The notes under the pieces are model-generated. The model had not been told where the DNA came from. It saw only the letters and a list, made by a program, of their open reading frames with translations, and ran no database searches. This document shows, one piece after another, positions 1 through 61,093 of a stretch of DNA of 64,000 bases. The translations under genes and the position numbers were made by a program. The first letter of the stretch is position 1. The number at the start of each line of letters is the position of its first letter. The stretch comes from a virus (lineage: Duplodnaviria > Caudoviricetes): positions 1-64,000 of the IMG/VR virus record IMGVR_UViG_3300037400_008007. One strand, written 5' to 3'.

Positions 1-360
1 ATGACAACAACAAACATAAATAACATTTCTGGCTCTTTCAGTGTGAATGGAAAGGTGTATAAGAACATCAAGGGTCGTGTCGAAATTACAGAGCGCGGCA
101 TTTTTGTCAATGGCAAACCAATAGAGGAATACGAAGAGCCTCCAGTAATGAAGTTGGTCATTGAGGGTAACATCGGGTCGATCGAGACAGAGAACGCAGA
201 CGTAGAGGTGAAAGGTGATGTGCAAAGTATCGTGTCAAAGAATGGAAACGTGAATTGTGGAAACGTGTCCGGCAACGTGGACTCCAAGAATGGCAATGTG
301 CATTGCGGCACCGTTAATGGTGATGTAACTACCAAGAATGGAAACATATTCAGAGGTTGA
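1..360 (+). CDS. Hypothetical phage protein with repeated (S/T)KNGN(V/I) motifs, probably a beta-helix
   Basis: ORF track; three SKNGNV/TKNGNI repeats in the C-terminal half. Confidence 0.6.
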   Translation: MTTTNINNISGSFSVNGKVYKNIKGRVEITERGIFVNGKPIEEYEEPPVMKLVIEGNIGSIETENADVEVKGDVQSIVSKNGNVNCGNVSGNVDSKNGNVHCGTVNGDVTTKNGNIFRG

Positions 361-361
361 T

Positions 362-1228
362 ATGAATGACGAGATGAAAATAAACGGAAAGGCATTATAC
401 ACCCCAAAGGGCGCGGCTCTCGAATATGCGCCTGTTGGTTGCAATATCTACACAGGCTGCAAGCATGATTGTGAGTATTGCTACTTAAAGCGTGGTGTTC
501 TGTCCCATGCAATGGGCGGTACTGATGTGAAACTTAAATCGTGCTTCAAGAGCGAAGAACATGCTATAGAGACATTTTGCAGGGAGGCAGACAGAAATCT
601 TGCTTATCTCCAGAAAGCAGGTGTGTTCTTCTCATTCTCCACAGACCCATTGATAGCCGAGACCCGTGCTGTCACAAAGGCTTGTCTTGTCTATGCTAAT
701 ATGCGAGCCATTCCTGTAAAGCTGCTGACAAAGAACGCAGACTTTATAGACGATGATTTGTTTATGTCGGGACTGGAGAGCGCAGACTTCCGCAGACTGG
801 TAGCTTTTGGCTTTACTCTGACAGGACGTGATGACATGGAGCCAGGCGCATCAACTAACGAAAAACGCATCGAGACGATGAAGAGATTGAAGGCTAAAGG
901 CTTTCACACCTTTGCAAGTATCGAGCCGATTATTGATTTCGGAAATTCGTTCGCAATGATAGAGCAGGCGGCTATGTTCTGTGACCTTTTCAAGATTGGA
1001 CTTCGCTCCGGAGTGAAAGACAACTATTATGATGCAAACAAGTGCGCTTTCTTTATAGGACAGATAACGTCCTTATGTGAAACGATTGGCTTCAAGGTAT
1101 ATTGGAAGCAGTCTATTTACAAGTATATTCAGAGGCACATGGCAAGTGACCATTTCGACATTGCTCTTTCTTTGAGCAAGAATTTTGTCGATATGGACTA
1201 TAACATATTCAAGGAGGGAAGAGTATGA
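362..1228 (+). CDS. Radical SAM protein (SplB-like)
   Basis: CxxxCxxC motif (GCKHDCEYCY), FSFSTDP, TFASIEP. The 338 start overlaps the upstream gene, so ATG 362 is preferred. Confidence 0.85.
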   Translation: MNDEMKINGKALYTPKGAALEYAPVGCNIYTGCKHDCEYCYLKRGVLSHAMGGTDVKLKSCFKSEEHAIETFCREADRNLAYLQKAGVFFSFSTDPLIAETRAVTKACLVYANMRAIPVKLLTKNADFIDDDLFMSGLESADFRRLVAFGFTLTGRDDMEPGASTNEKRIETMKRLKAKGFHTFASIEPIIDFGNSFAMIEQAAMFCDLFKIGLRSGVKDNYYDANKCAFFIGQITSLCETIGFKVYWKQSIYKYIQRHMASDHFDIALSLSKNFVDMDYNIFKEGRV

Positions 1229-2295
1229 TGTTAGACCTATATCCGTTGGAACTGTCAAAGGAGGCTGACAGACCAATAATCATTGCAGGCCCATGTTCTG
1301 CAGAGAGTGAAGAGCAACTGATGGAAACAGCGAAAAGGTTGTATGCGCAGGGAGTGAGATTGTTTCGTGCTGGAATATGGAAACCACGCACGAAGCCTGG
1401 CTGTTTTGAAGGCTACGGAGAGCAAGCCCTACCTTGGCTTGAAAACGTAGGAAAGCAGTTGAAGATGACAACCGCAACAGAGGTGGCCACTCCTGAACAC
1501 GTTGAGCTTGCATTGTTGTATAACATTGATGTGCTATGGATAGGAGCAAGAACGACCGCCAATCCTTTTGCCGTGCAATCGTTGGCAGACGCATTGAAAG
1601 GTGTCGATGTGCCAGTATTGGTCAAGAACCCTGTAAATCCAGATTTGGAGTTATGGATAGGAGCCTTGGAACGTCTCAACCGTGCAGATATTAGGAGGCT
1701 TGGGGTAATACACAGAGGCTTCAGCAGCTACGAAAACAAACTCTACCGAAACGCTCCAATGTGGCAGATACCTATTGAGCTTCGCAGGAGAATACCAGAG
1801 CTGCCAATATTGTGCGACCCCTCACACATGGGAGGAAAGCGAGACCTTATCGCTCCTTTGTCACAGCAAGCACTTGATTTGGGTTATGACGGCTTGTTTG
1901 TAGAGAGCCATAACGAGCCAGACAAGGCTTTAAGCGATGCAGGTCAGCAAGTGACTCCCGATGTCCTTGGTTACATCTTGTCTCTGCTTACGGTAAGAAG
2001 TACAAAGAGCGTAAATGTTGGACTAAGTGAACTCCGGCATCGTATTGACGAGATAGACGGACAACTTATTGAGCTGCTGTCAAAGCGAATGGGTGTCAGT
2101 AGGGAGGTAGCAGAGTACAAAAGAGAGTATAATATTCCAGTTTATCAGACAAAGCGTTACAGTGAGCTGATGGAGAAGAGAGAGGCGCAAGGGGCGTTAT
2201 GTGGACTTGCCAACACGTTTGTAACGAGCCTATTCAGCCTCATTCATGAAGAAAGCGTGAATGAACAAACAAAAATAATAAACCAAAAAAGGTAA
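1225..2295 (+). CDS. Bifunctional DAHP synthase (class I-beta) / chorismate mutase type II, an auxiliary metabolic gene
   Basis: IAGPCSAES, RAGIWKPRT, WIGART, VLVKNP, IHRGF, CDPSH and ESH motifs; C-terminal LRHRIDEIDGQLIELLSKR chorismate mutase domain. Confidence 0.93.
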   Translation: MMLDLYPLELSKEADRPIIIAGPCSAESEEQLMETAKRLYAQGVRLFRAGIWKPRTKPGCFEGYGEQALPWLENVGKQLKMTTATEVATPEHVELALLYNIDVLWIGARTTANPFAVQSLADALKGVDVPVLVKNPVNPDLELWIGALERLNRADIRRLGVIHRGFSSYENKLYRNAPMWQIPIELRRRIPELPILCDPSHMGGKRDLIAPLSQQALDLGYDGLFVESHNEPDKALSDAGQQVTPDVLGYILSLLTVRSTKSVNVGLSELRHRIDEIDGQLIELLSKRMGVSREVAEYKREYNIPVYQTKRYSELMEKREAQGALCGLANTFVTSLFSLIHEESVNEQTKIINQKR

Positions 2296-2301
2296 CAAAT
2301 T

Positions 2302-2571
2302 ATGGAAAGAAAAGAAATTAGTGAGAAAATTATTGCAATCATCGAAGAGAAGTTAGACTTCGAGAAGACTGCCAGTGATGAAAAGAAAGAGGGAGCGCTC
2401 TTCAGGGAGGACTTGAATGGTGACAGTCTGGATGCCGTGGAGGTTATCATGGAGATTGAGAGAGCCTTTGGTGTCACCATTACTGATGAAGAGGGCGATA
2501 GACTCTGTGGTGATAATGTAAAGGTGTCTGACTTTATAGACCTTGCATGTAAGAAAGTCAGCGAGAAGTAA
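2302..2571 (+). CDS. acpP: Acyl carrier protein
   Basis: DLNGDSLDAVEVIMEIERAFGVTI with the phosphopantetheine Ser in DSL; acidic, 89 aa. Confidence 0.88.
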   Translation: MERKEISEKIIAIIEEKLDFEKTASDEKKEGALFREDLNGDSLDAVEVIMEIERAFGVTITDEEGDRLCGDNVKVSDFIDLACKKVSEK

Positions 2572-2733
2572 ATGGAGAAAACCCTTATCTGTTGTGATGT
2601 AAAATGCACGGTTCGCATGGAATGTCAGCTATTCGGCCTGGCACTCGATGTCAATTCGGGAAAGAATATCGGCCAGTACAATATTCTGCCCGACGGAGAA
2701 TGTAAGGGGAACTATTACAAGAAAGCCAGATAG
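2572..2733 (+). CDS. Small Cys-containing hypothetical protein (53 aa, not in ORF track)
   Basis: Manual translation MEKTLICCDVKCTVRMEC...KAR*; abuts the ACP stop codon. Confidence 0.5.
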   Translation: MEKTLICCDVKCTVRMECQLFGLALDVNSGKNIGQYNILPDGECKGNYYKKAR

Positions 2734-3117
2734 CTATGAAAACGAAAAACCAAAACTTGTCAGCCAAAAGCGATCGAGTCAGTGACTATCAGCATGACCC
2801 GTTTGTCGTGGATTGGCCATGTGTAACCTCAAAACAGAACAAATCATGATGAAGATAGTTGCAACAACACTCCTTTGCATAATAGTATTGGTGCAGTGGG
2901 TAATAGGAATCAAAGGTTGTGCCAAGGAACATTTAGGATGCTCCAGTATGGTAATATTCAGCCTGTGGTCGATATTCCTTATCTCGTTGTTATACTTCGC
3001 AGGGTGTTTCGATTTTTGAAAGCAAAGGCTGGGGTGAGTGCCACGGTAACGTGTCACACGGAATTAAATGCATAGGCACCCCAGCCTGTTTTTATAAGGA
3101 TAATAAATAATACAAAT

Positions 3118-3522
3118 ATGGAGAAAAGAGAAGAACAGCTTATTGAACGTATTCTTGGCAAGGAGTTCCTAAACGCTGCAAAGGAATATGGAAAACAAAT
3201 CAAGGTGGCGGTAGCCATACAGGGAGCATCGCCCAATGTACAAACGGCTATGGAGCGCATCGCTTCAGTGGCTTTTGCCAAAGGAGCAGAAAATTTCCGA
3301 AGTAGCCTTTGGCACCCACTGGCGAAGAAATATCCGAAGCTCAACACTCCAGTCTTGTGCAAGGGTGAAAGTAACGTGCTGTTTATCGCAGAGTTCGTCA
3401 AGACAGCTGACGGAGGCATTAAGTCCAAGGACATGAACCACTGCCCTACAGAGAGAGTTGAGTACTGGATGGAGATACCAAACTCGGAAATTCGAGCAAC
3501 GAAAGAGGTGGCCATGAATTGA
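3118..3522 (+). CDS. Hypothetical phage protein with DUF551-like C-terminus
   Basis: WHP...P...VL...YWMEIP pattern. Confidence 0.55.
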   Translation: MEKREEQLIERILGKEFLNAAKEYGKQIKVAVAIQGASPNVQTAMERIASVAFAKGAENFRSSLWHPLAKKYPKLNTPVLCKGESNVLFIAEFVKTADGGIKSKDMNHCPTERVEYWMEIPNSEIRATKEVAMN

Positions 3523-3534
3523 GCCACCCCTTTC

Positions 3535-3657
3535 AAAGTAGAAGGCCCTACTCTCACGAGCAAGGCCGTTCCTATGCAAATAAGATAAATACCATCAAAA
3601 CTAAGACAATGATGCCAGAATAGGCAGTTGTCGTTAGATGAAAATGTATCTATCGAT
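3535..3657 (-). ncRNA. Candidate trans-acting antisense sRNA complementary to the cassette leaders
   Basis: Leftward promoter upstream; 3574-3611 is complementary to the cassette leader consensus; a 10-bp GUGA-tetraloop hairpin (3544-3567) pairs fully only on the minus strand. Confidence 0.55.
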
Positions 3658-3661
3658 GTGG

Positions 3662-3693
3662 CAAAGGTAGGATTTTTTTGTCAAAAGCACAAA
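3662..3693 (-). promoter_or_regulatory. Leftward Bacteroidetes housekeeping promoter
   Basis: Minus-strand TTTG (3693-3690), 20-nt spacer, TACCTTTG (3669-3662). Confidence 0.7.
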
Positions 3694-3705
3694 TTTTGTG
3701 CGATA

Positions 3706-3725
3706 TTTGATAAAATTTTATCAAA
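3706..3725. promoter_or_regulatory. Perfect 20-bp palindrome TTTGATAAAATTTTATCAAA, putative operator
   Basis: Self-complementary, lies between divergent promoters; the half-site TTTGATAAA recurs in the cassette promoters. Confidence 0.65.
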
Positions 3726-3728
3726 AAT

Positions 3729-3759
3729 TTTGCATTATCTGTAGAAATGATTATATTTG
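3729..3759 (+). promoter_or_regulatory. Rightward promoter of the HTH-ParB operon
   Basis: TTTG 3729-3732, 19-nt spacer, TATATTTG 3752-3759. Confidence 0.7.
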
Positions 3760-3779
3760 CACTTGAATTTCTAAACATT

Positions 3780-4190
3780 ATGATAAGAGAGAAGATTTAC
3801 CAGCAGATGTTGAAGCGCGGAGTGACCCAGACGGAACTCTGCAATGACCTCTGTCTGCAGGTGTCAAATTTCAATGCTTTTATTCGCGGAAAGAGGGCTA
3901 TGCCATTCAAAGACCTTGTGGCCACGATGAAGTATTTGAAGTTATCTGTGGCACCTCAAGGAACAGAAAGCACAAGCACCCCTCCCGAAAATATGAATGA
4001 GATTTTCCGCAAGCGAATTAAGCAGAATAACTTGAAACTTGTGGAAGTCGAGGCTGCTTCGGGTATCTGTAGAACAAGCATTTCCAGTATAATCACTGGA
4101 AAACACGTCACGTCATCGAAGAACCTTGGCAGGCTCATGACTGCTCTTGGTCTCGATGTCGTGCCGTTCAAGGCAACAGTAACGAACTAA
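3780..4190 (+). CDS. Transcription regulator with two tandem XRE-type HTH domains
   Basis: GVTQTELCNDLCLQVSNFNAFIRG and LKLVEVEAASGICRTSISSIITG. Start moved from 3747 to 3780 because the -7 box lies inside the longer ORF. Confidence 0.8.
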   Translation: MIREKIYQQMLKRGVTQTELCNDLCLQVSNFNAFIRGKRAMPFKDLVATMKYLKLSVAPQGTESTSTPPENMNEIFRKRIKQNNLKLVEVEAASGICRTSISSIITGKHVTSSKNLGRLMTALGLDVVPFKATVTN

Positions 4191-4204
4191 ATACAATCTG
4201 AACA

Positions 4205-4876
4205 ATGGAAATAGTAAGAAAGAGACTCGAAGAACTGGTCCCTGCCGACTACAATCCGAGGAAAGATTTGCAAGAAGCCGATAAGGAGTACCAAGACATC
4301 AAGAACGGTATTCAGAATTTCGGTCTTGTCGTTCCTCTGATTATGAACAAGCGGACTGGCAATCTTGTGAACGGTCACCAGAGACTAAAAGTACTGAAAG
4401 ACCTTGGCTATACAGAGGTTGAGGTGAGCATTGTAGATATGGACGAGACAAAGGAGAAGGCTCTTAATCTCGCCCTTAGTCGTATTGATGGTGATTTTGA
4501 CGGAAAGGCATTGACTAATGTTCTTGCAGAAGTGCGAGCAGCAGGCATCGACCCCGTTACGCTTGGTTTTACAAAGTCAGAGGTGGAGAAGATGTTTCCT
4601 GCAGATATGCAAGCCGAGAACCTTTTTGGCGACGAGACAGACAATCCTTTCAAGGACTACGATAATGAGCCAGAAGAGACGGAAGTTACGGCAATGGTCG
4701 GCAAGTATCGCTTCGTTATGGATAAGTCGAAGATGGAAGAAGTCATGGGTGAAATCCGCTACCGAAATGGCTTTGTCAAGGAGAGTGTGGAGAACGAAAT
4801 CAAGCTGAGACTATTCTATGGAAAAGACTGGAAACAACACGCAGCAGATAATGACAATACGGACGCTGAAGGTTAG
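4205..4876 (+). CDS. ParB/Srx N-terminal domain protein 1
   Basis: LVPADYNPRK...FGLVVPLIMN...LVNGHQRL. Confidence 0.85.
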   Translation: MEIVRKRLEELVPADYNPRKDLQEADKEYQDIKNGIQNFGLVVPLIMNKRTGNLVNGHQRLKVLKDLGYTEVEVSIVDMDETKEKALNLALSRIDGDFDGKALTNVLAEVRAAGIDPVTLGFTKSEVEKMFPADMQAENLFGDETDNPFKDYDNEPEETEVTAMVGKYRFVMDKSKMEEVMGEIRYRNGFVKESVENEIKLRLFYGKDWKQHAADNDNTDAEG

Positions 4877-5489
4877 TGAAATCGAAGAAGCCTTTTACAA
4901 TCCCCGAAAGGTGATGAAGAAAGGTAGTAAGAAATACGAGAACCTAAAAGGAAGCCTGGAGCAGTTCGGTATAGTTGAGCCGCTTGTGGTGAACGAGGTG
5001 AACAACCGCCTTATCTCCGGCCATCAAAGACTGAACGTGTTGCGTGACCTTGGCACCGAAGAGGTAGAGGTGTCTATCGTTCATATCGAGGACGAAGCAA
5101 GGGAAAAGGCTTTGAACGTGTTGCTCAACAAGGTAAAAGGCAAGTGGGATAAGCTCAAGCTGGCAGATGTACTCAAATCGATTGGCGATGAGTTCAACGC
5201 TCTTGACCTTGGCTTTGAAGAGAGTGATATTGCCGAGTTCCTAAAGAACGGAGAGGACGTTGGTGTTGATGGTGCTCATGCGGACGAAATGGACGAAGGC
5301 ATCAAACTGCGTAAGGACGCTGCCGCTGTGGTCGTTGCTATTGCTGGGGTGCGCTTTACTATTCCGGCACCAGAGTTTGCACAGTTGGAGCAGAATCTTG
5401 TCGAGGCAGGATGCTTCAGCGATAAAGAAATCAGTGAAGAACTTAAAAAAAGATTTATAGCCGATGATACAGATGGTAGCGTTGGATAA
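4818..5489 (+). CDS. ParB/Srx N-terminal domain protein 2 (start may be 4851)
   Basis: FYNPRK...FGIVEPLVVN...LISGHQRL. Confidence 0.85.
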   Translation: MEKTGNNTQQIMTIRTLKVSEIEEAFYNPRKVMKKGSKKYENLKGSLEQFGIVEPLVVNEVNNRLISGHQRLNVLRDLGTEEVEVSIVHIEDEAREKALNVLLNKVKGKWDKLKLADVLKSIGDEFNALDLGFEESDIAEFLKNGEDVGVDGAHADEMDEGIKLRKDAAAVVVAIAGVRFTIPAPEFAQLEQNLVEAGCFSDKEISEELKKRFIADDTDGSVG

Positions 5490-6999
5490 AATCCACGCAT
5501 CTACTTACAACCCCAGAAAGTCAGACCCCAAACGTCTTGACCTGTTAGAGCTTTCGTTGCGGAAGCTCGGCTTTGTGTCACCAATCGTTGTTGACCAAGG
5601 CGGTGAAATTATTTCGGGCCACCAGAGAAGTTTCGTTGCAACACGCATGGGAGTGAAGATGGTGCCAGTAACCATTATCCCTCGCATGACGCTTGATGAG
5701 CGCAAGAGTCTTAACATCGTGTTCAACCGTGCCACCAATGACTTGAAGCGTAGTGACACTTGTGCTACGGTCAATGAGTATGTGAGCCGTTTCGATGTTG
5801 AAGCTATTGCAAATAAGCTTCCAGACCTTACCCCCGATACTCCAGAGTTCTATCCTTGTATGCACACCAAGACTGGTGACAGCTTCGACTTATTGAAGAA
5901 GAATGCAGACAAGATAAACCACTATGCGACCAATATGTATAGCACCTTGGCCCGAAAGAAGATAGAGTTGCCTACTGTTGTCGATGAAGAGGACAATGTT
6001 GTAAACGGTATCGGTCGAGTTTCTTACTATGCAAAGCAGAATGTTCGTCCAATTCCGATCTGTCGTATTACGAAAGCCCAGGCACAGTTTGCAAACCTCA
6101 TGCTGAACTACCTTACAATGGACTTTGACATTCAGAACCGATACGCAGACACGTTGCGTCACAACTCATTCATGCGCACAAGAAACACACGAAACGGTGG
6201 TTTGGGCTGTGGTTTCTACAAGGGTTTGTGGCCTTACTTGCGTTGCGAGGACACGATGATACTTGAGGACAAGAAGAAAGAAGAATGGGTAGCACGTTTC
6301 GGGGAGAGCATTGTGGACTTTGGTGCTGGCAAGCTCAATAACACCCGAATACTCCGAGAGTCCGGCATCCCATGCTCTGCTTTTGAACCGTATTTCATCG
6401 CCACTGGTGAGGAAATCAGCAAGCAAGAGTCGCTAAAGATTGACCGCAAATTCCTTGAAGAGATTGCCGATGGCCGAGAGTTCAGTACCATATTCATTTC
6501 TTCGGTGTTCAACTCTGTGCCATTTATGGAGGACAGAAAGGCCATAGCCACTATTTGCTCTGCCCTGTCGAGCCCAGAGACGATTTGCGTATGTTGGACG
6601 CAGGGAGTGAACGTAGGCAACAATGCTGCCATATCGTCTAACGTACAGAGCAAGAGAGCTGCAGGACAGATTACGTTCAACATTGACTATGAGCCAAACG
6701 TGGTGCTGGGTGACTTCTCTAAGCTACCAAAAGTTCAGAAGTACCACACCAACCGAGAAATCTTTGACATCTTCGACCCAGTGTATAGCAAGATTTACCG
6801 TCTTGACAAGCTGGACGGATATGTGTATATGGAGGCCAAGGGCTCACGTCTTGACGTGAACAATGTCGAGTACATGGAGCGTCTGCGTAAGGCCATAGAG
6901 TTCGAGTTTGACCTGCCTTATCCAGACGGTACAAGAGCAGGACTTGTCGAAGAGGCAAAAGAGGCTTTTGGCAGGCGATTAGGAGTGAAAATTCCATAA
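5464..6999 (+). CDS. ParB-domain protein fused to a C-terminal class I SAM-dependent transferase-like domain
   Basis: TYNPRK...GFVSPIVVD...IISGHQR; second degenerate ParB unit (VVNGIGR); IVDFGAG motif I; FISSVFNSVPFMEDR. Confidence 0.7.
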   Translation: MIQMVALDKIHASTYNPRKSDPKRLDLLELSLRKLGFVSPIVVDQGGEIISGHQRSFVATRMGVKMVPVTIIPRMTLDERKSLNIVFNRATNDLKRSDTCATVNEYVSRFDVEAIANKLPDLTPDTPEFYPCMHTKTGDSFDLLKKNADKINHYATNMYSTLARKKIELPTVVDEEDNVVNGIGRVSYYAKQNVRPIPICRITKAQAQFANLMLNYLTMDFDIQNRYADTLRHNSFMRTRNTRNGGLGCGFYKGLWPYLRCEDTMILEDKKKEEWVARFGESIVDFGAGKLNNTRILRESGIPCSAFEPYFIATGEEISKQESLKIDRKFLEEIADGREFSTIFISSVFNSVPFMEDRKAIATICSALSSPETICVCWTQGVNVGNNAAISSNVQSKRAAGQITFNIDYEPNVVLGDFSKLPKVQKYHTNREIFDIFDPVYSKIYRLDKLDGYVYMEAKGSRLDVNNVEYMERLRKAIEFEFDLPYPDGTRAGLVEEAKEAFGRRLGVKIP

Positions 7000-7010
7000 A
7001 GAAACCTATC

Positions 7011-7074
7011 TAAAAACTTGCATATTTGATAAATTATTTGTACCTTTGAGTACCAAAAATAAGGAAAAGACGCA
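7011..7074 (+). promoter_or_regulatory. Cassette promoter C1 (degenerate leader)
   Basis: CTTG-CATATTTGATAAA...TACCTTTG (7041-7048). Confidence 0.7.
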
Positions 7075-7569
7075 ATGAAAGATAGAATAATTCTTTTGGA
7101 TTTGAACTACACCTTGGTTAGCAACCAAGAAAAGACTCGTATGATACGGCCTTTCGAGGCCCGTCTGCGAGCCGAGGACTACAGGAAAGACCTTATAGAG
7201 GCCATCAAAGGAAATCGTGTCATCATCATTACTGCCCGTCCGTCCTACCAAGGGGCGCAATCACTGGCAAACATTCAGCGTAAGACAGGGTGGCAACCAA
7301 TGGAGGCGCATTTCAATGACCTTAATCTCGATCCGCCCTCAATCAAAGAGAGCATCCTCGAACGATTTGTTTTCCCAAAGTATGGGAATGAAGGCAAGAC
7401 GTTCTTTGCTGTGGAGAGCAATCCAAGAACGAGGGCTATGTATTACCGTCATGGCATCCCTGCAGAACCTTATGAGAAGTTCATACAGCGTTTCCCAGAG
7501 ATTGTGATGGCGATGACCAACGACCCAGCACAGTTAGAATTATTCCCAAATGACGACACAAAAGAGTAA
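7075..7569 (+). CDS. HAD-superfamily, PNKP-phosphatase-like protein with degenerate motifs
   Basis: ILLDLNYTL (motif I-like), IIITARP (motif II), FAVESN (motif IV-like). Confidence 0.6.
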   Translation: MKDRIILLDLNYTLVSNQEKTRMIRPFEARLRAEDYRKDLIEAIKGNRVIIITARPSYQGAQSLANIQRKTGWQPMEAHFNDLNLDPPSIKESILERFVFPKYGNEGKTFFAVESNPRTRAMYYRHGIPAEPYEKFIQRFPEIVMAMTNDPAQLELFPNDDTKE

Positions 7570-8302
7570 GAAAGAAGCAGCAGACAAAAAGCAAGACAAA
7601 TATATCCCAACCAAGCAGTGGGAGTTCAACAAGGAGGTGACAGATGTTTTCCCAAACATGCTGTCACGCTCCATTCCTGGCTATGAGAGTATGCGTGAAC
7701 TGGTGTACCGCATGGCTCGTAACTTTGTCAAGGAAGGAACAAACGTACTTGATATTGGCTGTTCTACTGGCATATCATCAGAATTGCTCATACAGAATTT
7801 TGGCCCTAAGTGCAACTTTGTGCTTACTGATGTGAGTGAGCCAATGATTGCCAAGTGCCGAGAGAAGTATGCCAAGGAGATACAAGAAGGCTATGTCAAT
7901 GTGAAGTACAGCGACCTGCGAGAGAAACTGCCTGTAAAGGGCTGTTCCCTTATCCTGTCTTGTCTAACCATCCAGTTCACTCCTATAGAGTACCGTCAGT
8001 TTATCTTCAAGAACATATATGAGTCCTTGGAGCCTGGCGGTGCTTTGGTGTTGGTGGAGAAAGTGATGGGAAACTCTGATGACATCGACCAAGTGTTGGT
8101 GAAGGAGTACTATGACATCAAGAGAGAGAACAGGTACACAGAGGAACAGATAAAGACCAAGCGCAGAAGTCTCGAAGGCTCACTTGTGCCGCTCACCATA
8201 AAGATGAACGAGCAACTGTTGAACATCAGTGGCTTCCATAAGGTAGATACGTTCTGGCGATACCTAAATTTCGTGGCACTCATAGCCATAAAGGAGAAAT
8301 AA
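7550..8302 (+). CDS. cmoA: Carboxy-S-adenosyl-L-methionine synthase homologue
   Basis: Colinear with E. coli CmoA as recalled: WEFNKEVTDVFPNMLSRSIPGY, LDIGCSTG, TIQF, PGGALVLVEK, KRENRYTEEQIKTKRRSLE (R205 matches catalytic R199). Confidence 0.85.
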   Translation: MTTQKSKKEAADKKQDKYIPTKQWEFNKEVTDVFPNMLSRSIPGYESMRELVYRMARNFVKEGTNVLDIGCSTGISSELLIQNFGPKCNFVLTDVSEPMIAKCREKYAKEIQEGYVNVKYSDLREKLPVKGCSLILSCLTIQFTPIEYRQFIFKNIYESLEPGGALVLVEKVMGNSDDIDQVLVKEYYDIKRENRYTEEQIKTKRRSLEGSLVPLTIKMNEQLLNISGFHKVDTFWRYLNFVALIAIKEK

Positions 8303-8320: not shown

Positions 8321-8881
8321 ATGGCAGCACCAAAAGGAAACCAATACTACCTCTTGGCCAAGCAAGCCCTTGGGCGACCTAAAGCCATAGAGACTGCAAA
8401 GGAGTTTGAAGAGAAGTTCCTTGAATACGTCGAATGGAGCGAGGACAACCCAATACTGTCTAAACGTGCGTCCAAACGTACAGGGGCAACAGATGCCAGT
8501 GGCCAACAAAAACCCGATGAAATCCGAATGGATAGCGAGAGTAAACGCAGACCACTATCCATGTACGGACTCTGTGCCTATCTTGGTGTAAGCCGGAAGT
8601 GGTTTGAAATGAGGCTCAAGACGCTTGAAGAAAAAGGTAAGGAGCGAACCGAAGAAGAGGAAGAGTTTTTTACCTCCATTACACGCGCAAAGAGCATTAT
8701 CGAAATGCAGCAGTATGATGGAGCGAGTGTAGGGGACTTCAATGCCACACTCACCATGAGGGCATTGGGATTGGGCGACAAGGTGGATATGACCAGCGAC
8801 GGGGAAGCCATCAAGACTACCCTGCCAATCATTAACATAATGAGAGACGAGCGCTGTGCAGGTGGACGTGAAGCTGAATGA
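8321..8881 (+). CDS. terS: Terminase small subunit
   Basis: MAAPKGNQY N-terminus typical of gp3-type packaging proteins; directly upstream of TerL. Confidence 0.8.
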   Translation: MAAPKGNQYYLLAKQALGRPKAIETAKEFEEKFLEYVEWSEDNPILSKRASKRTGATDASGQQKPDEIRMDSESKRRPLSMYGLCAYLGVSRKWFEMRLKTLEEKGKERTEEEEEFFTSITRAKSIIEMQQYDGASVGDFNATLTMRALGLGDKVDMTSDGEAIKTTLPIINIMRDERCAGGREAE

Positions 8882-10217
8882 CAAGCAATTCCATGCATAC
8901 GACATTCTCACCGACATGGATAACGGTGTTACCGAACTTCTGTACGGAGGTGGAGCGCGTGGAGGAAAAACATGGCTCGGATGCTTTTGGCAGATAACCA
9001 ACCGCCTAAAATATCCGCAGTCCGTGGGAATGATATGCCGTGAGCAACTTGTCAATCTGTTAGACACTACCCTCAAGACGTTCTTTGAAGTGCTGGACTT
9101 CCTCGGAATAACCGACCAAGTGGTTTACAAGGGAGGTATGACCAACTCTGCTTTCTTTCCCAACGGCTCGATGATATTCTTCCGCTCACTGGCGAAGAAG
9201 CCTAAAGACCCGAACTTTGACCGTTTCGGCTCATATGCCATAACGGACTTGTTTGTTGATGAGAGTCAGCAGGTGTCAGAAAAGGCTATCAACGTGATAC
9301 GAGGTCGTTTCTCTCTGCTTGAAGGCCCGAACCCAGACGGAACGAAGTGGCACCTCATACCCAAGGCCATGTATAGCTGTAACCCCTCAAGGGGATGGAA
9401 CTACACCTTGTTTGTGAAGCCTGCCAAGGACGGGAATCTTGCACCATTCAGAAGATTTGTCAAGGCACTACCAAAGGACAATCCCTATGTCACGCAGGAC
9501 TATATCGACAATCTGTTGCGATCAGACAAAATCACAGTGGAACGTCTGTATTATGGAAATTTCGAGTATGACGATGACCCTGCCTCGCTGATAGACTACG
9601 ATGCGCTGGTAGATATGTTCCACAATGAGCATGTGCAGCCAGTAGGTGGCAGAAGTTGTTCTGCTGACATAGCAGGCAAAGGCCGTGACCGTTTTGTTGC
9701 AGGCTCATGGATTGGGAACGTCTGTACGATAGCCCTCGATAAACAATACTCTCCAGCTAAAGAGGTGCAAGAGGACTTGAAGCAGTTGATGATAAGAGAC
9801 CGTGTGCCAAGGACATTGACCGTGGTCGATGCGGACGGTATAGGCTCATTCTTGGAAAGCTATCTTGAAGGTATAAAAGAGTTTCATGGAGGCTGGAAGC
9901 CACTCGATGCACGTTATCAGAACCTACGAGCCGAGTGTTACTTCAAACTGGCAGAGCTTATCAATGGCCGTAAGATAAGAGTTATCTGCACAGACGAGCA
10001 GCGAGACCGAATTATTGACGAGCTTGGAGCGTTAAAGCAGGCGCATATCGACAATGACGTAGGAAAGAAAGACGTTATCAAGAAAGACGAATGGAAGACC
10101 CTGCTGGGCGGTAAGTCACCTGACTACTCTGATATGCTGATGATGGCCATGATATTCAGAAGAAGCAAAACAACGGCAGGGCCACAGGTGTCAGTGCAGA
10201 GACGAAGTACTGAATAA
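8856..10217 (+). CDS. terL: Terminase large subunit
   Basis: Walker A GGARGGKT, Walker B LFVDESQQ, SCNP, nuclease-domain SADIAG and SPDYSD. Confidence 0.93.
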   Translation: MQVDVKLNDKQFHAYDILTDMDNGVTELLYGGGARGGKTWLGCFWQITNRLKYPQSVGMICREQLVNLLDTTLKTFFEVLDFLGITDQVVYKGGMTNSAFFPNGSMIFFRSLAKKPKDPNFDRFGSYAITDLFVDESQQVSEKAINVIRGRFSLLEGPNPDGTKWHLIPKAMYSCNPSRGWNYTLFVKPAKDGNLAPFRRFVKALPKDNPYVTQDYIDNLLRSDKITVERLYYGNFEYDDDPASLIDYDALVDMFHNEHVQPVGGRSCSADIAGKGRDRFVAGSWIGNVCTIALDKQYSPAKEVQEDLKQLMIRDRVPRTLTVVDADGIGSFLESYLEGIKEFHGGWKPLDARYQNLRAECYFKLAELINGRKIRVICTDEQRDRIIDELGALKQAHIDNDVGKKDVIKKDEWKTLLGGKSPDYSDMLMMAMIFRRSKTTAGPQVSVQRRSTE

Positions 10218-21552: not shown

Positions 21553-21786
21553 ATGACACGTTACGAACTTTTGACAACAAACAAGACGCTCATTGAGGCG
21601 ATGGTGGAGAACTCCATTGACATTCGGGACATCAAGTATCTCTCGCTATATGCAGAGTTTAAGGCGATGAAATCCAAGAAGCACAAGGTAGGCTACATTG
21701 TCCTGCACCTTAGCGAGAAATACAAGATGTCCGAGAGAGGCATCTACAAGCTGATAGACCGAATGAAGAAACGAGTCGCAATATGA
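21553..21786 (+). CDS. Small HTH-like protein
   Basis: LSEKYKMSERGIYKLI helix-turn-helix-like C-terminus. Confidence 0.55.
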   Translation: MTRYELLTTNKTLIEAMVENSIDIRDIKYLSLYAEFKAMKSKKHKVGYIVLHLSEKYKMSERGIYKLIDRMKKRVAI

Positions 21787-22535
21787 AGCACTACAACACC
21801 ATAGAGGAAAGTCATCTGTACTTCGGGAACAATCTCGAAGTTATGGATGACCTGCCTGCGTACAGCATAGACCTTATTGTGACCGACCCACCTTACAACT
21901 TCACGAAGGCGAATTGTACCAAGATGTATAAAGAGACTTCTAAGAAGCTGATGTCGAAGTCTGGTCTATACGACTACGACGACGAGACGGAAGAATGTCG
22001 TATTAAGGCAGGCTTCAGTAAGGATGACATCTACCGATGGTTGGATATGACACCAAGGCTGGTAAAGAAGATGAACGCATACATTTTTTGTTCCGAGGTG
22101 CAAGTGCCTATCTATGCCATGTGGGCAGAGGAACACGGTTATAAGTTCTCAATTCTCATTTGGGAGAAGCCGTTGGCCATTATCAGCAAAAGCCGTTATT
22201 CGCAGAATGTGGAGTTTATTGTGCGCATATACGATGACGGAACCGCCCTCAATAAGATCGATGACTGCGAACAGTACAACAGAGTCCTGCATATTCCAGT
22301 AGTCACCAAGAAGCTAACACCTACGCAGAAACCTGTTGCGCTCATGGCCAGGCTTATCCGTCTATCCTCGCAAGAAGGGGGTGTTGTTCTTGATCCGTTC
22401 TTAGGTTCGGGAACAACGGCTGTTGCAGCCCAACGGTTGGGCAGGAAGTATATCGGCATAGAAAGAAATGAGCGATTCTATCGCATTGCAGAGAATCGCT
22501 TAAAGGAAGAGTGCGTCCAACAGTCGCTGTTTTAG
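21783..22535 (+). CDS. DNA methyltransferase, N4-C/N6-A, beta class
   Basis: IVTDPPY precedes TQKPVAL and VLDPFLGSGTT. Confidence 0.9.
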   Translation: MKHYNTIEESHLYFGNNLEVMDDLPAYSIDLIVTDPPYNFTKANCTKMYKETSKKLMSKSGLYDYDDETEECRIKAGFSKDDIYRWLDMTPRLVKKMNAYIFCSEVQVPIYAMWAEEHGYKFSILIWEKPLAIISKSRYSQNVEFIVRIYDDGTALNKIDDCEQYNRVLHIPVVTKKLTPTQKPVALMARLIRLSSQEGGVVLDPFLGSGTTAVAAQRLGRKYIGIERNERFYRIAENRLKEECVQQSLF

Positions 22536-52626: not shown

Positions 52627-53943
52627 TTGCGGAATGAAGGAATATTCACTATGAGTAAAAGATATGGTCATATCATGCCACAAATCATCGAGAGACGGAA
52701 CATGGATGATGCCTTCGATGAGGTGGTAGGAGGCTTAGAGGGAAAGGAGCGTCGGGAGCACTACGAGGCGCAGAGAGAGAGTATCATATCACGGCTGACC
52801 GCCAAGATAGGCTCCGGCACCTTTCGCATCACACGCTATGAACAGTTCTGGGTTCAAGACGGGCCTAAGCGTAGGTTGATACAGTCGCCCAGCGTGACAG
52901 ACAGAATTGGTTGTAATGCCGTGATGAGGGTTGTGGAGAAATATATCTACCCGACCATTATCAAGACATCTGCAGCAAGCATCAAAGGACGTGGCATGCA
53001 CAGGCTCTACCGTAAGATGAGGACAGACGTGCGCCATGACCGAGAGGGAACGAGATACTTCTATATGTGCGACATAAGAAAGTTCTACGAGAGTGTGAAC
53101 CAAGACATGACGTTTGCGCTGGTTAAGGAATATATCAAAGACCCCTTGGTGCTGCCGATACTGGAGAGCTTTATTAGGCTCATGCCGAAAGGACTTTCCA
53201 TAGGCCTGCGTTCATCGCAGTGCTTCGGTAATATGCTGCTGTCAAGAATGGGTCACAGGTTAAAGGAGAAAGAGGGTGTGCGCTACCTTTACATCTACTG
53301 TGACGACATTCGAGTGTATGGTGCAACAAAGAAGTGGCTATGGCATATCCGAGACATCATTCACGAAGAGGTTGAAAGCCTTGGACTGGAGATAAAGCCC
53401 AGCGAGGCTGTTAAGCCAACGACAGAGGGGAATGACTTTCTTGGATATATCGACTATGGCGATCATTCGAGATTAAGAAAGAGAACAAAACAAAAAGCCG
53501 CACGGAAACTTGCCCGAATAAAGAGCCGCAAGCGCAGACAGAAAATAGTCGGTTCTTTCAAGGGCATGGCGAAATGGGGAGATTGTAAACATTTATACAG
53601 AACGCTAACAGGTAAAGACATGGAAGAGTTCAAAGATTTTGGACTACAGTATGTAGCCGACGATGGTAAGAAACGGTTTGCTGGTGATGTAATCAAGTTG
53701 CATCAGCTTACCAATATGCACATTATCATTACGGACTACGAAGAGAACGTAGACACGGCTAACGGCAAACGTACTCTGGTGTCGTTCAAGTACGACAACG
53801 GAACGCCTGCCAAGTATTTCACTTCTGACAAGCAGCAGCTCTATTTCCTGCAGCAGCTATCTTCGATGAAAAAGATACCGTTTGGTACGACTATCAAGAG
53901 TGAGAGCTACGGGAACGGAAAGGTACGTTATATATTCACTTAA
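52627..53943 (+). CDS. DGR reverse transcriptase with a C-terminal extension of about 107 aa
   Basis: KRRLI, IKGRG, CDIRKFYES, GLSIGLRSSQCFGN, YCDD, DFLGY; adjacent to TR. Confidence 0.95.
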   Translation: MRNEGIFTMSKRYGHIMPQIIERRNMDDAFDEVVGGLEGKERREHYEAQRESIISRLTAKIGSGTFRITRYEQFWVQDGPKRRLIQSPSVTDRIGCNAVMRVVEKYIYPTIIKTSAASIKGRGMHRLYRKMRTDVRHDREGTRYFYMCDIRKFYESVNQDMTFALVKEYIKDPLVLPILESFIRLMPKGLSIGLRSSQCFGNMLLSRMGHRLKEKEGVRYLYIYCDDIRVYGATKKWLWHIRDIIHEEVESLGLEIKPSEAVKPTTEGNDFLGYIDYGDHSRLRKRTKQKAARKLARIKSRKRRQKIVGSFKGMAKWGDCKHLYRTLTGKDMEEFKDFGLQYVADDGKKRFAGDVIKLHQLTNMHIIITDYEENVDTANGKRTLVSFKYDNGTPAKYFTSDKQQLYFLQQLSSMKKIPFGTTIKSESYGNGKVRYIFT

Positions 53944-57689: not shown

Positions 57690-58532
57690 ATGAAAAAAGT
57701 TATTTTGAATGTACCCGACAATCGGGAAAGAGAGTTCTCCGAAAAGCTGGCAGAACTGATGAAAGAGTACGGAGTCACCGAGAGGTACGAGCCAAGAGAG
57801 GGTGATTTTGTGGCTTTCATGGATGACACAACAGATGAGCCGTTTATTGGTATCTTCTGTAGTTGGTACAACGATGAAGCGGACAAGATTGTTTGTTACG
57901 CTCATATTGACGATGAAGGCAGTCTGGAGCAAGAAGAAGAGTATTGGAATGCAGACACAATCCGAAAGGCAACAAAAGAAGAGAAGGATAACCTTTTGCG
58001 AGAGTTGGCGAAGTCTGGCAAGCGTTGGAATGCAGAGGAAAAGACGTTTGATGAATGTCAGACCTATGAGGCTATCCGTACTTTTGAGGATGCGATGACG
58101 GTTACAGGCATGACTTTGCCGTTAAGCGATGAGACATTATCGTTGCTGGGTGCTGATATTGTGGCTTATATGAAGCTTCGTGTTATTGTGGCAGCTATCA
58201 ATGGTCTGTCAGAGACAACCCTTGCAGAGTTCCCAAAGTTTACTACTGACGAGTATCGCTACTATCCTTGGTTTGCTCTATATACCAAGGAAGAGATTGA
58301 GGCTATGGATGAAGAGGACAAATGGCGCGTGGTTGGTCGTGCGCTCCTCAGTGCGAGTGCGGATGGCGGTTGCGTTTTTGCGTACGCGAACTACGCTTCT
58401 TCGTGCTCGTATACGCTCCACGGTGCGCGTCTCGCCTTCATCGACCGCGAAAGAGCGAAATACGCTGGCAGACAGTTCGCAGAACTGTATGCCGACTTCC
58501 TGTTTCTCCCACTTGAATTGATTGCCGAATGA
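57690..58532 (+). CDS. 280-aa protein; DGR target 2
   Basis: Contains VR2 about 30 codons before the stop; YYPWF...GARLAF...AKYAGRQF. Confidence 0.85.
   Translation: MKKVILNVPDNREREFSEKLAELMKEYGVTERYEPREGDFVAFMDDTTDEPFIGIFCSWYNDEADKIVCYAHIDDEGSLEQEEEYWNADTIRKATKEEKDNLLRELAKSGKRWNAEEKTFDECQTYEAIRTFEDAMTVTGMTLPLSDETLSLLGADIVAYMKLRVIVAAINGLSETTLAEFPKFTTDEYRYYPWFALYTKEEIEAMDEEDKWRVVGRALLSASADGGCVFAYANYASSCSYTLHGARLAFIDRERAKYAGRQFAELYADFLFLPLELIAE
58324..58440 (+). repeat. DGR variable repeat VR2
   Basis: 117 bp; 19 differences from TR, all at TR adenines. Confidence 0.97.
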
Positions 58533-59152
58533 AGATGGAAAAGGAAAAGAAAGATAAGAAAGAGAAGCTGATGCGAGTTGACCGTTTGCGGTTTATTCGC
58601 ATCAAGGCTTTGGGAAAATTCAAGAAGCCAGAAGTTGCGAAGAAAGACAGTATCGGGTACGATTTGTATGTACCCGAGTGTGTGAGTGTTCCAGCAAAGA
58701 GCCGTGTGCTTGTTCCACTGAACTTTGCCATTGAACTACCAAGAGGCATCGAGGGAAAGATTGAGCCTCGCAGTGGCTTTTCGGCAAAGGGAATGGAGGG
58801 CCTTGGCAGTCGAAAGAAATGGGTACTGAAGTGGGGCTGGTTGCCTTGGCGCATTACCGAGAGCGGAAAGCTCCGTTTCGACGCAGATGTGTTGGTCGGC
58901 AAGATTGACCCAGGCTACAAAGATTGTGTGAATGTTATTCTGAAAAACAACGATGTTGCTTTCACAATACCAGCAGGCACCCGAATAGCGCAGCTGACAT
59001 TCTACAGAGTGCTTCATGTGAAGAGGTTTGCTGAAGCCGAGGAACTTGACGGCTACGACCGCGGAGGTGGTATCGGCCATACAGGAACTGGAGAGATAAG
59101 AAACGAGCAAACCGACAATACGCAAACTGATGAGCGACCTGTTGCACACTGA
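58529..59152 (+). CDS. dut: Trimeric dUTPase with an insertion
   Basis: GYDL, PRSG, GKIDPGY, RIAQL, RGGGIGHTG. Confidence 0.88.
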   Translation: MKMEKEKKDKKEKLMRVDRLRFIRIKALGKFKKPEVAKKDSIGYDLYVPECVSVPAKSRVLVPLNFAIELPRGIEGKIEPRSGFSAKGMEGLGSRKKWVLKWGWLPWRITESGKLRFDADVLVGKIDPGYKDCVNVILKNNDVAFTIPAGTRIAQLTFYRVLHVKRFAEAEELDGYDRGGGIGHTGTGEIRNEQTDNTQTDERPVAH

Positions 59153-59809: not shown

Positions 59810-61093
59810 ATGAACCCAAAACATAGTTTATTTACATCAGAAGCAGTTTCAGAAGGCCACCCCGACAAGGTGGCTGACCAAATATCAGACGCTATCCTTG
59901 ATGCTTACTTTGCCAAAGACCCAAGCTCAAAGGTAGCGTGTGAGACTTTAGTGACCACTGGCCAAGCGATTGTAGCAGGAGAAATCCATTCGAGAGCCAA
60001 GGTCGATGTTCAGTCAGTAGTCCGAGAGACAATCAAACGCATTGGCTACGACCGCCCAGAGTTGAAGTTCGACGGAGAGAGCTGTGGGGTCATCAATCTG
60101 CTGCATGAACAGAGCGCAGATATTCGCAGAGGTGTTGAGCGTATCGAGCCGATGAACCAAGGTGCGGGTGACCAAGGGATGATGTTCGGTTATGCTACAG
60201 GTGAGACCGAGACCTACATGCCGTTGCCAATCTATCTTGCAAATCTTATCGTTAAAGAGCTTGCCATTGTGAGAAAGAAGCGTGAAGCCATGCTCTATCT
60301 ACGACCAGACAGCAAGAGTCAGGTGACTGTAGAATATGATGAGGATGGAAACGCTGTGCATATCGACACGATAGTTGTCAGTACCCAGCATGACGAGTTC
60401 GTTACACCCGACACTTGCAATCTTCCAGACGAAGCAGACGAAAGGATGCACGACATCATTGCTTATGACATCGAGAACTATCTGCTGCCAAGGGTCAAGG
60501 AGCGTATCAGTAGCGACGAGATACTTGCTTTGTTTGATGAGAACACCAAGATACTTGTCAATCCTACAGGAAAATTCGTGATTGGTGGCCCTCATGGTGA
60601 TACAGGATTGACAGGCCGAAAGATAATCGTTGATACCTACGGAGGTAAGGGCGCACATGGAGGCGGTGCTTTTAGCGGAAAGGACTGTTCAAAGGTTGAC
60701 CGTTCGGCAGCATACATGGCTCGTTACATTGCAAAGAATATGGTTGCTGCAGGAGTGGCAAAGGAAATGCTTGTTCAGTTAAGCTACGCTATTGGAATAG
60801 CCGAGCCTGTAAGCGTAAACGTACAGACTTTTGGCACCGCTCAAGTCGATCAGACTGATGCAGAGATTGCGGTGGCCATAAAGAACTTGTTCGACCTACG
60901 TCCGAAAGCCATAGAGTGCCAGTTGTCATTACGACAGCCAATGTATCAAGAGACGGCAGCTTATGGCCATGTGGGAAGAGAGCAGACCTGCGTAACGAAA
61001 GTTATTGAGGGTGTTTCATATAACGTGGCTCTCTTTACATGGGAAGCTCTCGATGCTGTAGAACGCATATCTGCCTACTTCGCTGACAAATGA
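59810..61093 (+). CDS. metK: S-adenosylmethionine synthetase
   Basis: [39 protein letters not shown]. Confidence 0.96.

Follow-up and report, generated by a model that had tools for sequence, protein, structure and literature searches.

A ParB-methyltransferase-fold fusion linked to a CmoA homologue and terminase genes: a candidate carboxy-SAM-dependent nucleic-acid modification module in phages

Gene content of the locus

Here, we describe a gene cassette at positions 4205-8302 of the window, by which we mean the first 64 kb of the viral record IMGVR_UViG_3300037400_008007 (74.6 kb, 76% complete according to CheckV). The cassette encodes two ParB proteins, a fusion of a ParB domain with a class I methyltransferase fold (hereafter, the fusion), a HAD-like protein and a homologue of CmoA, the enzyme that makes carboxy-S-adenosylmethionine (Cx-SAM) from S-adenosylmethionine (SAM) and prephenate; terS and terL follow (Table 1). 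We consider it as a candidate module for the Cx-SAM-dependent modification of nucleic acid. Almost all genes of the window lie on the plus strand, and those between 3747 and 10217 are closely spaced, none of the overlaps or gaps exceeding 76 nt. A preliminary description of this DNA, made from the sequence alone, had called the same genes, and its coordinates and domain calls all proved correct when set against profile searches and the list of open reading frames (ORFs); the DAHPS-chorismate mutase, MetK and LuxS that it listed outside the cassette are likewise present, each with a profile match.

Table 1 Genes discussed in the text, their positions in the window and the matches behind each assignment.
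Gene product	Position	Strand	Matches and remarks
Radical SAM protein (PA0069 / spore-photoproduct-lyase-like)	338-1228	+	Radical_SAM 25.7 bits (below cut-off); rSAM_PA0069 E 9e-14
Bifunctional 3-deoxy-D-arabino-heptulosonate 7-phosphate (DAHP) synthase with C-terminal chorismate mutase (DAHPS-CM), proposed prephenate source	1225-2295	+	PF00793 136.7 bits; PF01817 80.5 bits
Acyl carrier protein-like	2302-2571	+	PF00550 30.8 bits; phrog_5934 E 2e-10; directly after DAHPS-CM
Tandem helix-turn-helix regulator, head of the cassette	3747-4190	+	HTH_3 33.3 bits; HTH_26; PHROG transcriptional regulators; kept in clade relatives
ParB/Srx-domain protein 1	4205-4876	+	PF02195 28.4 bits; phrog_620 E 7e-37
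ParB/Srx-domain protein 2	4818-5489	+	PF02195 33.7 bits; phrog_620 and phrog_498 E 1e-36
ParB::class-I-methyltransferase-fold fusion, candidate Cx-SAM-dependent transferase	5464-6999	+	phrog_5475 E 2e-105
Small HAD-like protein	7075-7569	+	phrog_32036 (function unknown) E 2e-55; 164 residues
CmoA homologue (putative carboxy-SAM synthase)	7550-8302	+	TIGR00740 169.2 bits, E 1e-49; PDB 4gek E 6e-37
TerS, gp3-type	8321-8881	+	PF16677 59.5 bits; 3' boundary of the cassette
TerL	8856-10217	+	phrog_2 terminase large subunit E 3e-20; 3' boundary of the cassette
Beta-class N6/N4 DNA methyltransferase, ordinary	21783-22535	+	PF01555 118.8 bits; DPPY and F-x-G-x-G motifs
DUF4942 protein, 512 residues	25890-27428		phrog_32703; first ~130 residues match phage DNA methyltransferase PHROGs
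MetK, SAM synthetase	59810-61093	+	TIGR01034 498.7 bits (cut-off 309.4)
LuxS, S-ribosylhomocysteine lyase	61807-62286	+	NF002604 187.7 bits (cut-off 158)

The CmoA homologue

The best curated family for the last protein of the cassette is TIGR00740 (CmoA), which it matches at full length (model positions 14-239 of 239), and its closest solved structure is that of E. coli CmoA, with which it shares about 30% identity. The preliminary description had stated that the residues equivalent to E. coli Y39, D89, D117 and R199 (here R205) are kept and that Cys takes the place of N132. The alignments agree: the P-G-Y39 motif, the D-x-G-x-S-x-G glycine-rich loop and the equivalents of D89 and D117 are present, and K204-R205 align with K198-R199. 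In E. coli CmoA, Arg199 is the sole side chain that touches the carboxylate of Cx-SAM (PMC4482062).

SpCmoA of Synechococcus phage S-B43 has been shown to make Cx-SAM (PMC12783734). Scored with the same model, SpCmoA reaches 115.6 bits and the CmoA of Erwinia phage Y3 142 bits. At the position of E. coli K198-R199-S200, SpCmoA (L172:4962-5654) has K-E-K, and the window protein, with 169.2 bits against 115.6 and its K-R pair kept, is in sequence terms the more canonical of the two. Because a validated synthase has K-E-K at this site, Arg199 is, as judged from the alignments, not a universal marker of Cx-SAM synthases. The window CmoA is 42-45% identical to the CmoA proteins of Erwinia Y3-type jumbo phages and of Alcaligenes phage Afa-NA1; in Erwinia Y3, a neighbour of CmoA is a CmoY-like (asparagine-synthase) gene, which matches the published system. 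From its family and residues, we infer that the window protein would make Cx-SAM from SAM and prephenate.

Conservation and carriers of the cassette

Searched with the fusion family, IMG/VR yielded 259 relatives, 80 of which were analysed as loci. ParB, HAD-like and CmoA-like genes adjoin the fusion gene in nearly all of these 80 viral loci, and clustering of their 1,548 ORFs leaves exactly four shared core families, namely ParB, the fusion, the HAD-like protein and the CmoA-like protein. The terminases found downstream are of unrelated types among the loci (gpA-type, T4-type and gp3 TerS). A scan of bacteria and archaea, with one genome per species, gave 105 relatives; a CmoA-like gene occurs in 69 of the 80 loci kept, and 62 loci, with room to see both, carry the CmoA-like together with the HAD-like gene. 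Viral and bacterial contigs with the four-gene core number more than 150. Gene co-occurrence across phages, which the preliminary description had named as a way to check its proposal, ties CmoA to the fusion and the HAD-like gene in more than 100 contigs.

Bacterial carriers include Lachnospiraceae, Oscillospiraceae, Acetatifactor muris DSM 23669, Akkermansiaceae and other Verrucomicrobia, Rickettsiales and other Alphaproteobacteria, Vibrio, Anaerolineae and Bacteroidota. The cassette is also found in cultured phages, i.e., Gordonia phage Evaa, Aeromonas phage HJ05 and Pseudomonas Samunavirus phages (SM1, PaMx31, PA_L9 and others), whose CmoA-like partners have CmoA as their best family (91.7-120.8 bits). 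Genes 1-6 of Evaa read ParB, ParB-methyltransferase, hypothetical, phosphatase, methyltransferase and terminase. A literature search on DNA modification in Samunavirus, PaMx31, Evaa and HJ05 found nothing.

The two nearest copies of the cassette (90% and 88%) sit in metagenome-assembled genomes (MAGs) of rumen Bacteroidales (L174 and L175; Bacteroidales, Bacteroidaceae), on contigs of 134-163 kb that also carry the DAHPS-CM and radical SAM genes. Because of these two copies, the host is probably a Bacteroidales bacterium, and we assign the phage to rumen or gut Bacteroidales. The MAG copies suggest that the phage is temperate or was binned into a MAG. A megablast comparison of 4205-8302 with deposited phages gave zero matches, and a scan of this Bacteroidales-type phage for sigma-70 promoters and terminators was uninformative.

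The ParB::methyltransferase-fold fusion

The fusion has 511 residues and belongs over its whole length to phrog_5475, a family of unknown function; clustered at 50% identity, its relatives with E<1e-30 form 178 clusters. At residues 2-71 it matches ParB_N (PF02195) with 26.1 bits against a cut-off of 26.3, and phrog_620 with E 5e-24. An AlphaFold model built on 31 homologues has a pLDDT of 88.6 and a pTM of 0.84. The N-terminal ~200 residues match Noc/ParB structures by profile and by Foldseek, and the N-terminal half aligns with Noc/ParB across both the N-terminal and the DNA-binding parts.

For the C-terminal domain, sequence searches gave little: a weak Methyltransf_23 match at residues 280-385 (24.0 bits, cut-off 27) and, with a sequence profile of the domain, nothing significant in PDB (best E 0.43). 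Modelled alone (pLDDT 86.0), the domain gives a best VIA-align Z of 13.3 (root-mean-square deviation 3.1 A, 179 aligned), 170 chains reach Z>=8, and all 202 Foldseek matches at E<=1e-3 are methyltransferases. Invariant in the family are D285-F-G-A-G (motif I), E308 after strand 2 and N350-S-V-P-F after strand 4, as well as R232, R238, R243, R358, K423, K426 and H428. Since D-F-G-A-G and E308 are invariant and the class I model is confident, we predict with confidence a class I SAM-methyltransferase fold whose cofactor site is intact. Profile and structure searches of 5464-6999, another check that had been put forward beforehand, have thus returned a ParB/Noc-like N-terminus and a class I methyltransferase fold. 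The matches in ESM Atlas are unannotated members of the same family, including stand-alone forms of 207-228 residues, and such stand-alone methyltransferase-domain forms make up clusters of their own in viruses and bacteria; because they exist, the ParB part appears to be separable. The N350-S-V-P-F segment was also considered as an NPPY-like amino-methyltransferase motif, an idea that was dropped when it fell, in a UbiG profile alignment, on the L-E-H-V-P segment that small-molecule methyltransferases have in common.

The nearest folds (Z 13.3-12) are small-molecule, peptide and tRNA methyltransferases, e.g., METTL6 and Trm9. Together with a HAD-like partner that resembles nucleotide phosphatases, they would suit a Cx-SAM target other than DNA, be it tRNA or rRNA, the nucleotide pool, a packaging protein or a small molecule, with the ParB/Srx domain as a nucleotide-binding or kinase-like part; the ParB/Srx fold is also found in kinases and sulfiredoxin. 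We consider such a target unlikely. Fusion to ParB_N is a typical feature of phage DNA methyltransferases (phrog_498; PMC12783734), the alignment of the N-terminal half with Noc/ParB includes the DNA-binding part, the position directly before terS/terL is kept across unrelated terminase types, and tRNA genes are absent from the record.

Candidate consumers of Cx-SAM

The Cx-SAM synthases studied so far pair with an adjacent transferase of methyltransferase fold, as in CmoA/CmoB, TglE/TglF, MccS with MccB's C-terminal domain (MccB-CTD) and SpCmoA/CmoX (PMC10491745, PMC12783734). MccB-CTD is unrelated to CmoB, yet strictly specific for Cx-SAM (PMC10491745). In the present cassette, the fusion would be the consumer, because it is the sole methyltransferase-fold protein besides CmoA.

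The preliminary description had seen no CmoB, tRNA or C5-methyltransferase in the window, and dedicated searches bear this out. PF00145 (C5-methyltransferase) at E<=1 matched nothing in the whole 74.6-kb record or in six further genomes (G001-G006), and control genomes matched. CmoB (PF08003) was found neither in the record nor in G001 and G002, and a search of the record for tRNA genes found none. G001 is a close relative of 97.9 kb with direct terminal repeats (100% complete), G002 a carrier of the cassette (95% complete) and G006 the source of the distant locus L260 discussed below (100% complete). The absence of a C5-methyltransferase and of CmoB supports the earlier suggestion that the natural consumer is a transferase other than CmoX.

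A reverse search with a CmoA alignment yielded the 80 nearest viral CmoA loci, a sample biased to relatives of the window CmoA, in which 46 have the full fusion without a C5-methyltransferase-like ORF, 15 have a C5-methyltransferase-like ORF without the fusion, and 0 have both. One of the C5-methyltransferase-like ORFs was confirmed by PF00145 (206 bits). Beside CmoA, the fusion and C5-methyltransferases are therefore cleanly mutually exclusive.

This exclusion bears on the proposition that the ParB fusion is an ordinary SAM-dependent methyltransferase and that CmoA drains host SAM or makes Cx-SAM against SAM-dependent defences. SAM depletion by CmoA has been raised as an open possibility by Yang et al. 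(PMC12783734), the fold of the fusion is generic class I, and no Cx-SAM-selecting residue emerged from a co-variation test. However, an ordinary methyltransferase leaves unexplained both the mutual exclusion and the linkage of CmoA to the fusion and the HAD-like gene across phyla, and a SAM-destroying phage would not also carry MetK or a prephenate-feeding enzyme. On balance, we find it improbable that the fusion uses plain SAM.

Cx-SAM could also be used by another methyltransferase of this genome, namely the DPPY-type N6/N4 enzyme or the DUF4942 protein, which may be a third DNA-modifying enzyme encoded here, as its N-terminal matches suggest. Both genes are present in the window, and Yang et al. 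regard N6- or N4-carboxymethyltransferases as conceivable, although they found no such non-C5 candidates with CmoA (PMC12783734). Both nevertheless lie outside the conserved neighbourhood of the cassette. The N6/N4 gene occurs in G001 and is missing from G002, where the cassette is present; it is not among the shared cassette neighbours and looks like a standard orphan methyltransferase. We hold it very unlikely that either enzyme consumes the Cx-SAM. A Dam-type methyltransferase (PF02086) is absent.

We also noticed a third phage context of CmoA (L098:3357-8708, L099:4224-8711, L101 and L105), in which a CmoA 55-78% identical to that of the window comes directly after ThiF (E1-like), Prok-E2_D and ParB-like genes (a PRTRC-like set). 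These loci have neither the ParB fusion nor a C5-methyltransferase, and the arrangement recalls MccB, a ThiF-like enzyme, working with MccS.

The HAD-like protein

The HAD-like gene is strictly linked to the fusion gene. Over 62 homologues, D9-L-N11-x-T13, T53-A-R-P, K91 and E114-S-N are invariant; the layout is that of HAD motifs, yet the second Asp is replaced by the invariant Asn (N11). The window protein has no significant match in Pfam or among PDB sequences (best PDB E 0.16 with a family profile). In other members of the family, NIF, LNS2 and Acid_phosphat_B are matched below threshold, the distant L260 homologue reaches E 1e-4 to 7e-4 with Acid_phosphat_B, HAD_PNKP and NIF, and language-model (Atlas) features resemble those of HAD_PNKP and T5 dNMPase HAD phosphatases.

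Possible precursor supply

Upstream of the cassette lies the DAHPS-CM gene, whose domains are nearly complete (PF00793 16-258 of 270; PF01817 1-79 of 80) and well above their cut-offs; against NF009239, the model of bifunctional DAHPS/CM, it scores 179.9 bits, under the cut-off of 279. The gene is seldom seen in phages. A search of 50,697 deposited records gave a single convincing match, a human-faecal relative (64%), and a pattern scan of IMG/VR found 9 contigs, 8 of them in the clade of the window (one being a fragment cut off just past the gene). Of 8 viral clade relatives, 7 have DAHPS-CM 2-3 kb upstream of the cassette, as do both Bacteroidales MAGs.

The ninth contig (L260) belongs to a different lineage and comes from a 73.7-kb phage rated 100% complete. 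Its DAHPS-CM is 42% identical to that of the window, with both domains confirmed by Pfam, and stands directly before a HAD-like gene (30% identical; D-x-N-x-T and E-S-N kept), which is followed by CmoA (31% identical; TIGR00740 128 bits). Two genes past CmoA is a homologue of the fusion, 24% identical over 480 residues, in which D-F-G-S-G, F-E-P-F and N-S-V-P-F are kept. The CmoA of this locus (L260:11840-12520) has the same K-E-K as SpCmoA. This phage lacks a C5-methyltransferase and MetK, and a radical SAM gene was not detected within its 21-kb locus. Wherever a viral contig found with this type of DAHPS-CM is long enough, the cassette is present. Because two distant lineages, with different gene orders, both join DAHPS-CM to the cassette, there is good evidence at the genomic level that the cassette would consume a product of the shikimate pathway. 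Such a link fits the chemistry of CmoA and bears on the availability of prephenate, which Yang et al. named as an open question (PMC12783734).

The evidence for the other two supply genes is uneven. An 87% copy of MetK occurs in the complete relative G001, and the gene is absent from G002-G006. LuxS is found in this record alone among the five tested, being absent from G001-G004, which include a complete relative at 87-90%. Pfs (PF01048) was found neither in the record nor in G001 and G002, and since no Pfs is encoded, LuxS could not act on S-adenosylhomocysteine without the host. An ORF between MetK and LuxS (61147-61770) was considered as a Pfs candidate and rejected; it has no Pfam or PHROG family, and the record contains no PF01048. 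LuxS probably has no specific link to the cassette. The earlier idea that the phage brings its own precursor supply thus holds for DAHPS-CM, with its two independent linkages, is weaker for MetK, seen besides this record in G001 only, and finds no support for LuxS.

It could be argued that the supply genes have nothing to do with CmoA: DAHPS-CM, the radical SAM protein and the acyl carrier protein would form a separate pathway, MetK and LuxS would be unrelated host-takeover or quorum-sensing genes, and their fit to CmoA would be a coincidence. The three genes at 338-2571 are tightly packed, the radical SAM gene overlapping the start of DAHPS-CM, and the radical SAM gene travels with DAHPS-CM, adjoining it, in L002, L003, L174, L175 and L255; the distributions of MetK, LuxS and Pfs given above point the same way. 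Against a separate pathway, L005-L009 keep DAHPS-CM and lack the radical SAM gene, L260 has DAHPS-CM directly beside the HAD-like and CmoA genes with no radical SAM gene detected, and the cassette accompanies this DAHPS-CM in every viral contig of sufficient length. We therefore regard a coincidental fit of the supply genes as doubtful.

Proposed mechanism and its weight

We propose, with a probability of roughly 0.5, that 4205-8302 is a late, packaging-linked nucleic-acid modification module in which Cx-SAM made by CmoA is used by the ParB fusion on phage DNA, with prephenate supplied by DAHPS-CM. In the first step, the CmoA homologue would convert SAM and prephenate into Cx-SAM, as its family membership and conserved residues suggest. 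In the second, the C-terminal methyltransferase-fold domain of the fusion would move the carboxymethyl group, or a group derived from it, onto phage DNA; gene linkage, a distribution complementary to that of CmoX and the precedent of adjacent transferases argue for this step. The ParB domain of the fusion and the two free ParB paralogues would hold the enzyme on DNA. The acceptor atom would not be cytosine C5, at least not through the known mechanism, since neither the C5-methyltransferase fold nor its catalytic Cys motif is present. The HAD-like protein would be an obligatory fourth component that may act on the modified base or on a phosphorylated intermediate, which is a guess. DAHPS-CM would raise prephenate, the limiting co-substrate, in this Bacteroidales-phage lineage, as its two independent linkages suggest, and MetK may top up SAM.

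Several observations weigh against this proposal. First, the TIGR00740 score of the window CmoA falls below the NCBIfam equivalog cut-off of 193.3; this cut-off appears to leave out true phage enzymes, given the score of validated SpCmoA. Second, the CmoA of 25 out of 96 distinct cassette pairs has no Arg at the position of E. coli R199. We do not read its loss in about a quarter of cassette CmoAs as a loss of function, nor as disqualifying, because validated SpCmoA also lacks it. Third, structure searches of the methyltransferase domain (PDB, BFVD and ESM Atlas) returned nothing but generic class I methyltransferases and unannotated or stand-alone members of its own family; DNA methyltransferases, CmoB and CmoX did not stand out, a result with which a relationship is still compatible. 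Fourth, fusion columns that co-vary with the motif class of CmoA (Arg199 or not) gave no clean basic-residue switch, in a comparison confounded by phylogeny. Fifth, it is the ParB fusion and the phage context alone that suggest DNA as the substrate, and the window holds two extra DNA-methyltransferase-like genes that the preliminary description had overlooked as acceptors. Finally, on the supply side, the single operon that DAHPS-CM shares with the radical SAM and acyl carrier protein genes may mean another use, and the patchy occurrence of MetK and LuxS counts in the same direction.

If the module works as proposed, the fusion may be the founder of a second class of natural DNA carboxymethyltransferases, which has no structural relation to the first, acts on a non-C5 atom and yields a product that is possibly processed by the HAD-like protein. 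The module would be widespread in prophages of gut Clostridia, Bacteroidales, Verrucomicrobia, Alphaproteobacteria, Vibrio, Pseudomonas and Actinobacteria, and some lineages would rewire the shikimate pathway of the host purely for DNA modification. We put this wider reading forward tentatively, at a little less than even odds.

Comparison with known systems

The preliminary description had mentioned a cyanophage enzyme that uses Cx-SAM to modify cytosine, which we traced to Yang et al. (Nat Commun 2025, PMC12783734). In the CmoA-CmoX-CmoY system of phage S-B43 (PDB 8YF3), CmoX is homologous to C5-cytosine methyltransferases, has an SPPC motif and R350 and is often accompanied by the ligase CmoY, and ParB-domain proteins occur near the published system (PMC12783734). 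The present cassette shares with it a phage CmoA without CmoB, an adjacent methyltransferase-fold enzyme, ParB proteins often nearby and a presumed post-replicative modification of DNA. In contrast, it has no C5 fold, SPPC motif, R350 equivalent or AMP-forming ligase CmoY, and it features an orphan class I family fused to ParB, an obligatory HAD-like protein and a position before the terminase.

With E. coli CmoA/CmoB, which leads to cmo5U34 in tRNA, the cassette has in common the CmoA fold, the K198-R199 pair, the acidic SAM-binding residues and, by prediction, prephenate; it differs in lacking CmoB (PF08003) and tRNA genes, in its low identity, in the Cys at N132 and in its viral context. 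MccS/MccB-CTD of Bacillus amyloliquefaciens microcin C and TglE/TglF of 3-thiaglutamate likewise combine a CmoA homologue with a dedicated adjacent transferase, for which the fusion is the candidate here. However, they act on a peptidyl-nucleotide and a peptide thiol, respectively, and they have no ParB and no packaging context. ParB_N-fused phage DNA methyltransferases (phrog_498, N6_N4) resemble the fusion in joining an N-terminal ParB/Srx domain to a SAM-dependent transferase, often near packaging genes. Theirs is a recognised N6/N4 domain with DPPY, whereas the fusion falls in phrog_5475, has N-S-V-P-F after strand 4 and almost always occurs with the CmoA-like and HAD-like genes.

In Bacteroidota of the Prevotella / Porphyromonas type, DAH7P synthase-chorismate mutase fusions consist of the DAHP synthase followed by a C-terminal AroQ chorismate mutase. 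The window gene has the same order of domains, and the nearest carriers of the cassette are Bacteroidales MAGs; unlike the bacterial fusions, it is phage-encoded and linked to a putative Cx-SAM cassette.

A phage CmoA that feeds a DNA-modifying transferase is a known kind of system since December 2025. Cx-SAM-dependent DNA modification was first shown late in 2025 and via C5-cytosine methyltransferase homologues only. The cassette is a concrete candidate for a second class of transferase, probably with a different modified base, and it is both abundant and found in phages available in culture. In the literature that we searched, we found no description of this fusion family, of its obligatory HAD-like partner, of the position next to the packaging genes or of the coupling to DAHPS-CM. 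What is new here is the link to precursor supply and its independent second occurrence in a very distant phage, whose cassette proteins are 24-31% identical. On the genomic side, the DAHPS-CM link would indicate that prephenate is limiting to such a degree that phages carry a supply of their own. If true, this would represent a new logic for auxiliary metabolic genes, with the biosynthesis of aromatic amino acids put to use in making a DNA mark, and a new carboxyl handle on DNA would be of interest for restriction and anti-restriction, for the sequencing of modified phage genomes and for DNA-labelling chemistry.

Other genes

Outside the regions discussed, the window encodes a reverse transcriptase (52627-53943; phrog_1423, E 1e-77) and a dUTPase / dCTP-deaminase-like protein (58529-59152). 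Pseudomonas phage SM1 has a dCTP deaminase gene about 3.6 kb downstream of its cassette (L085:11051-11611).

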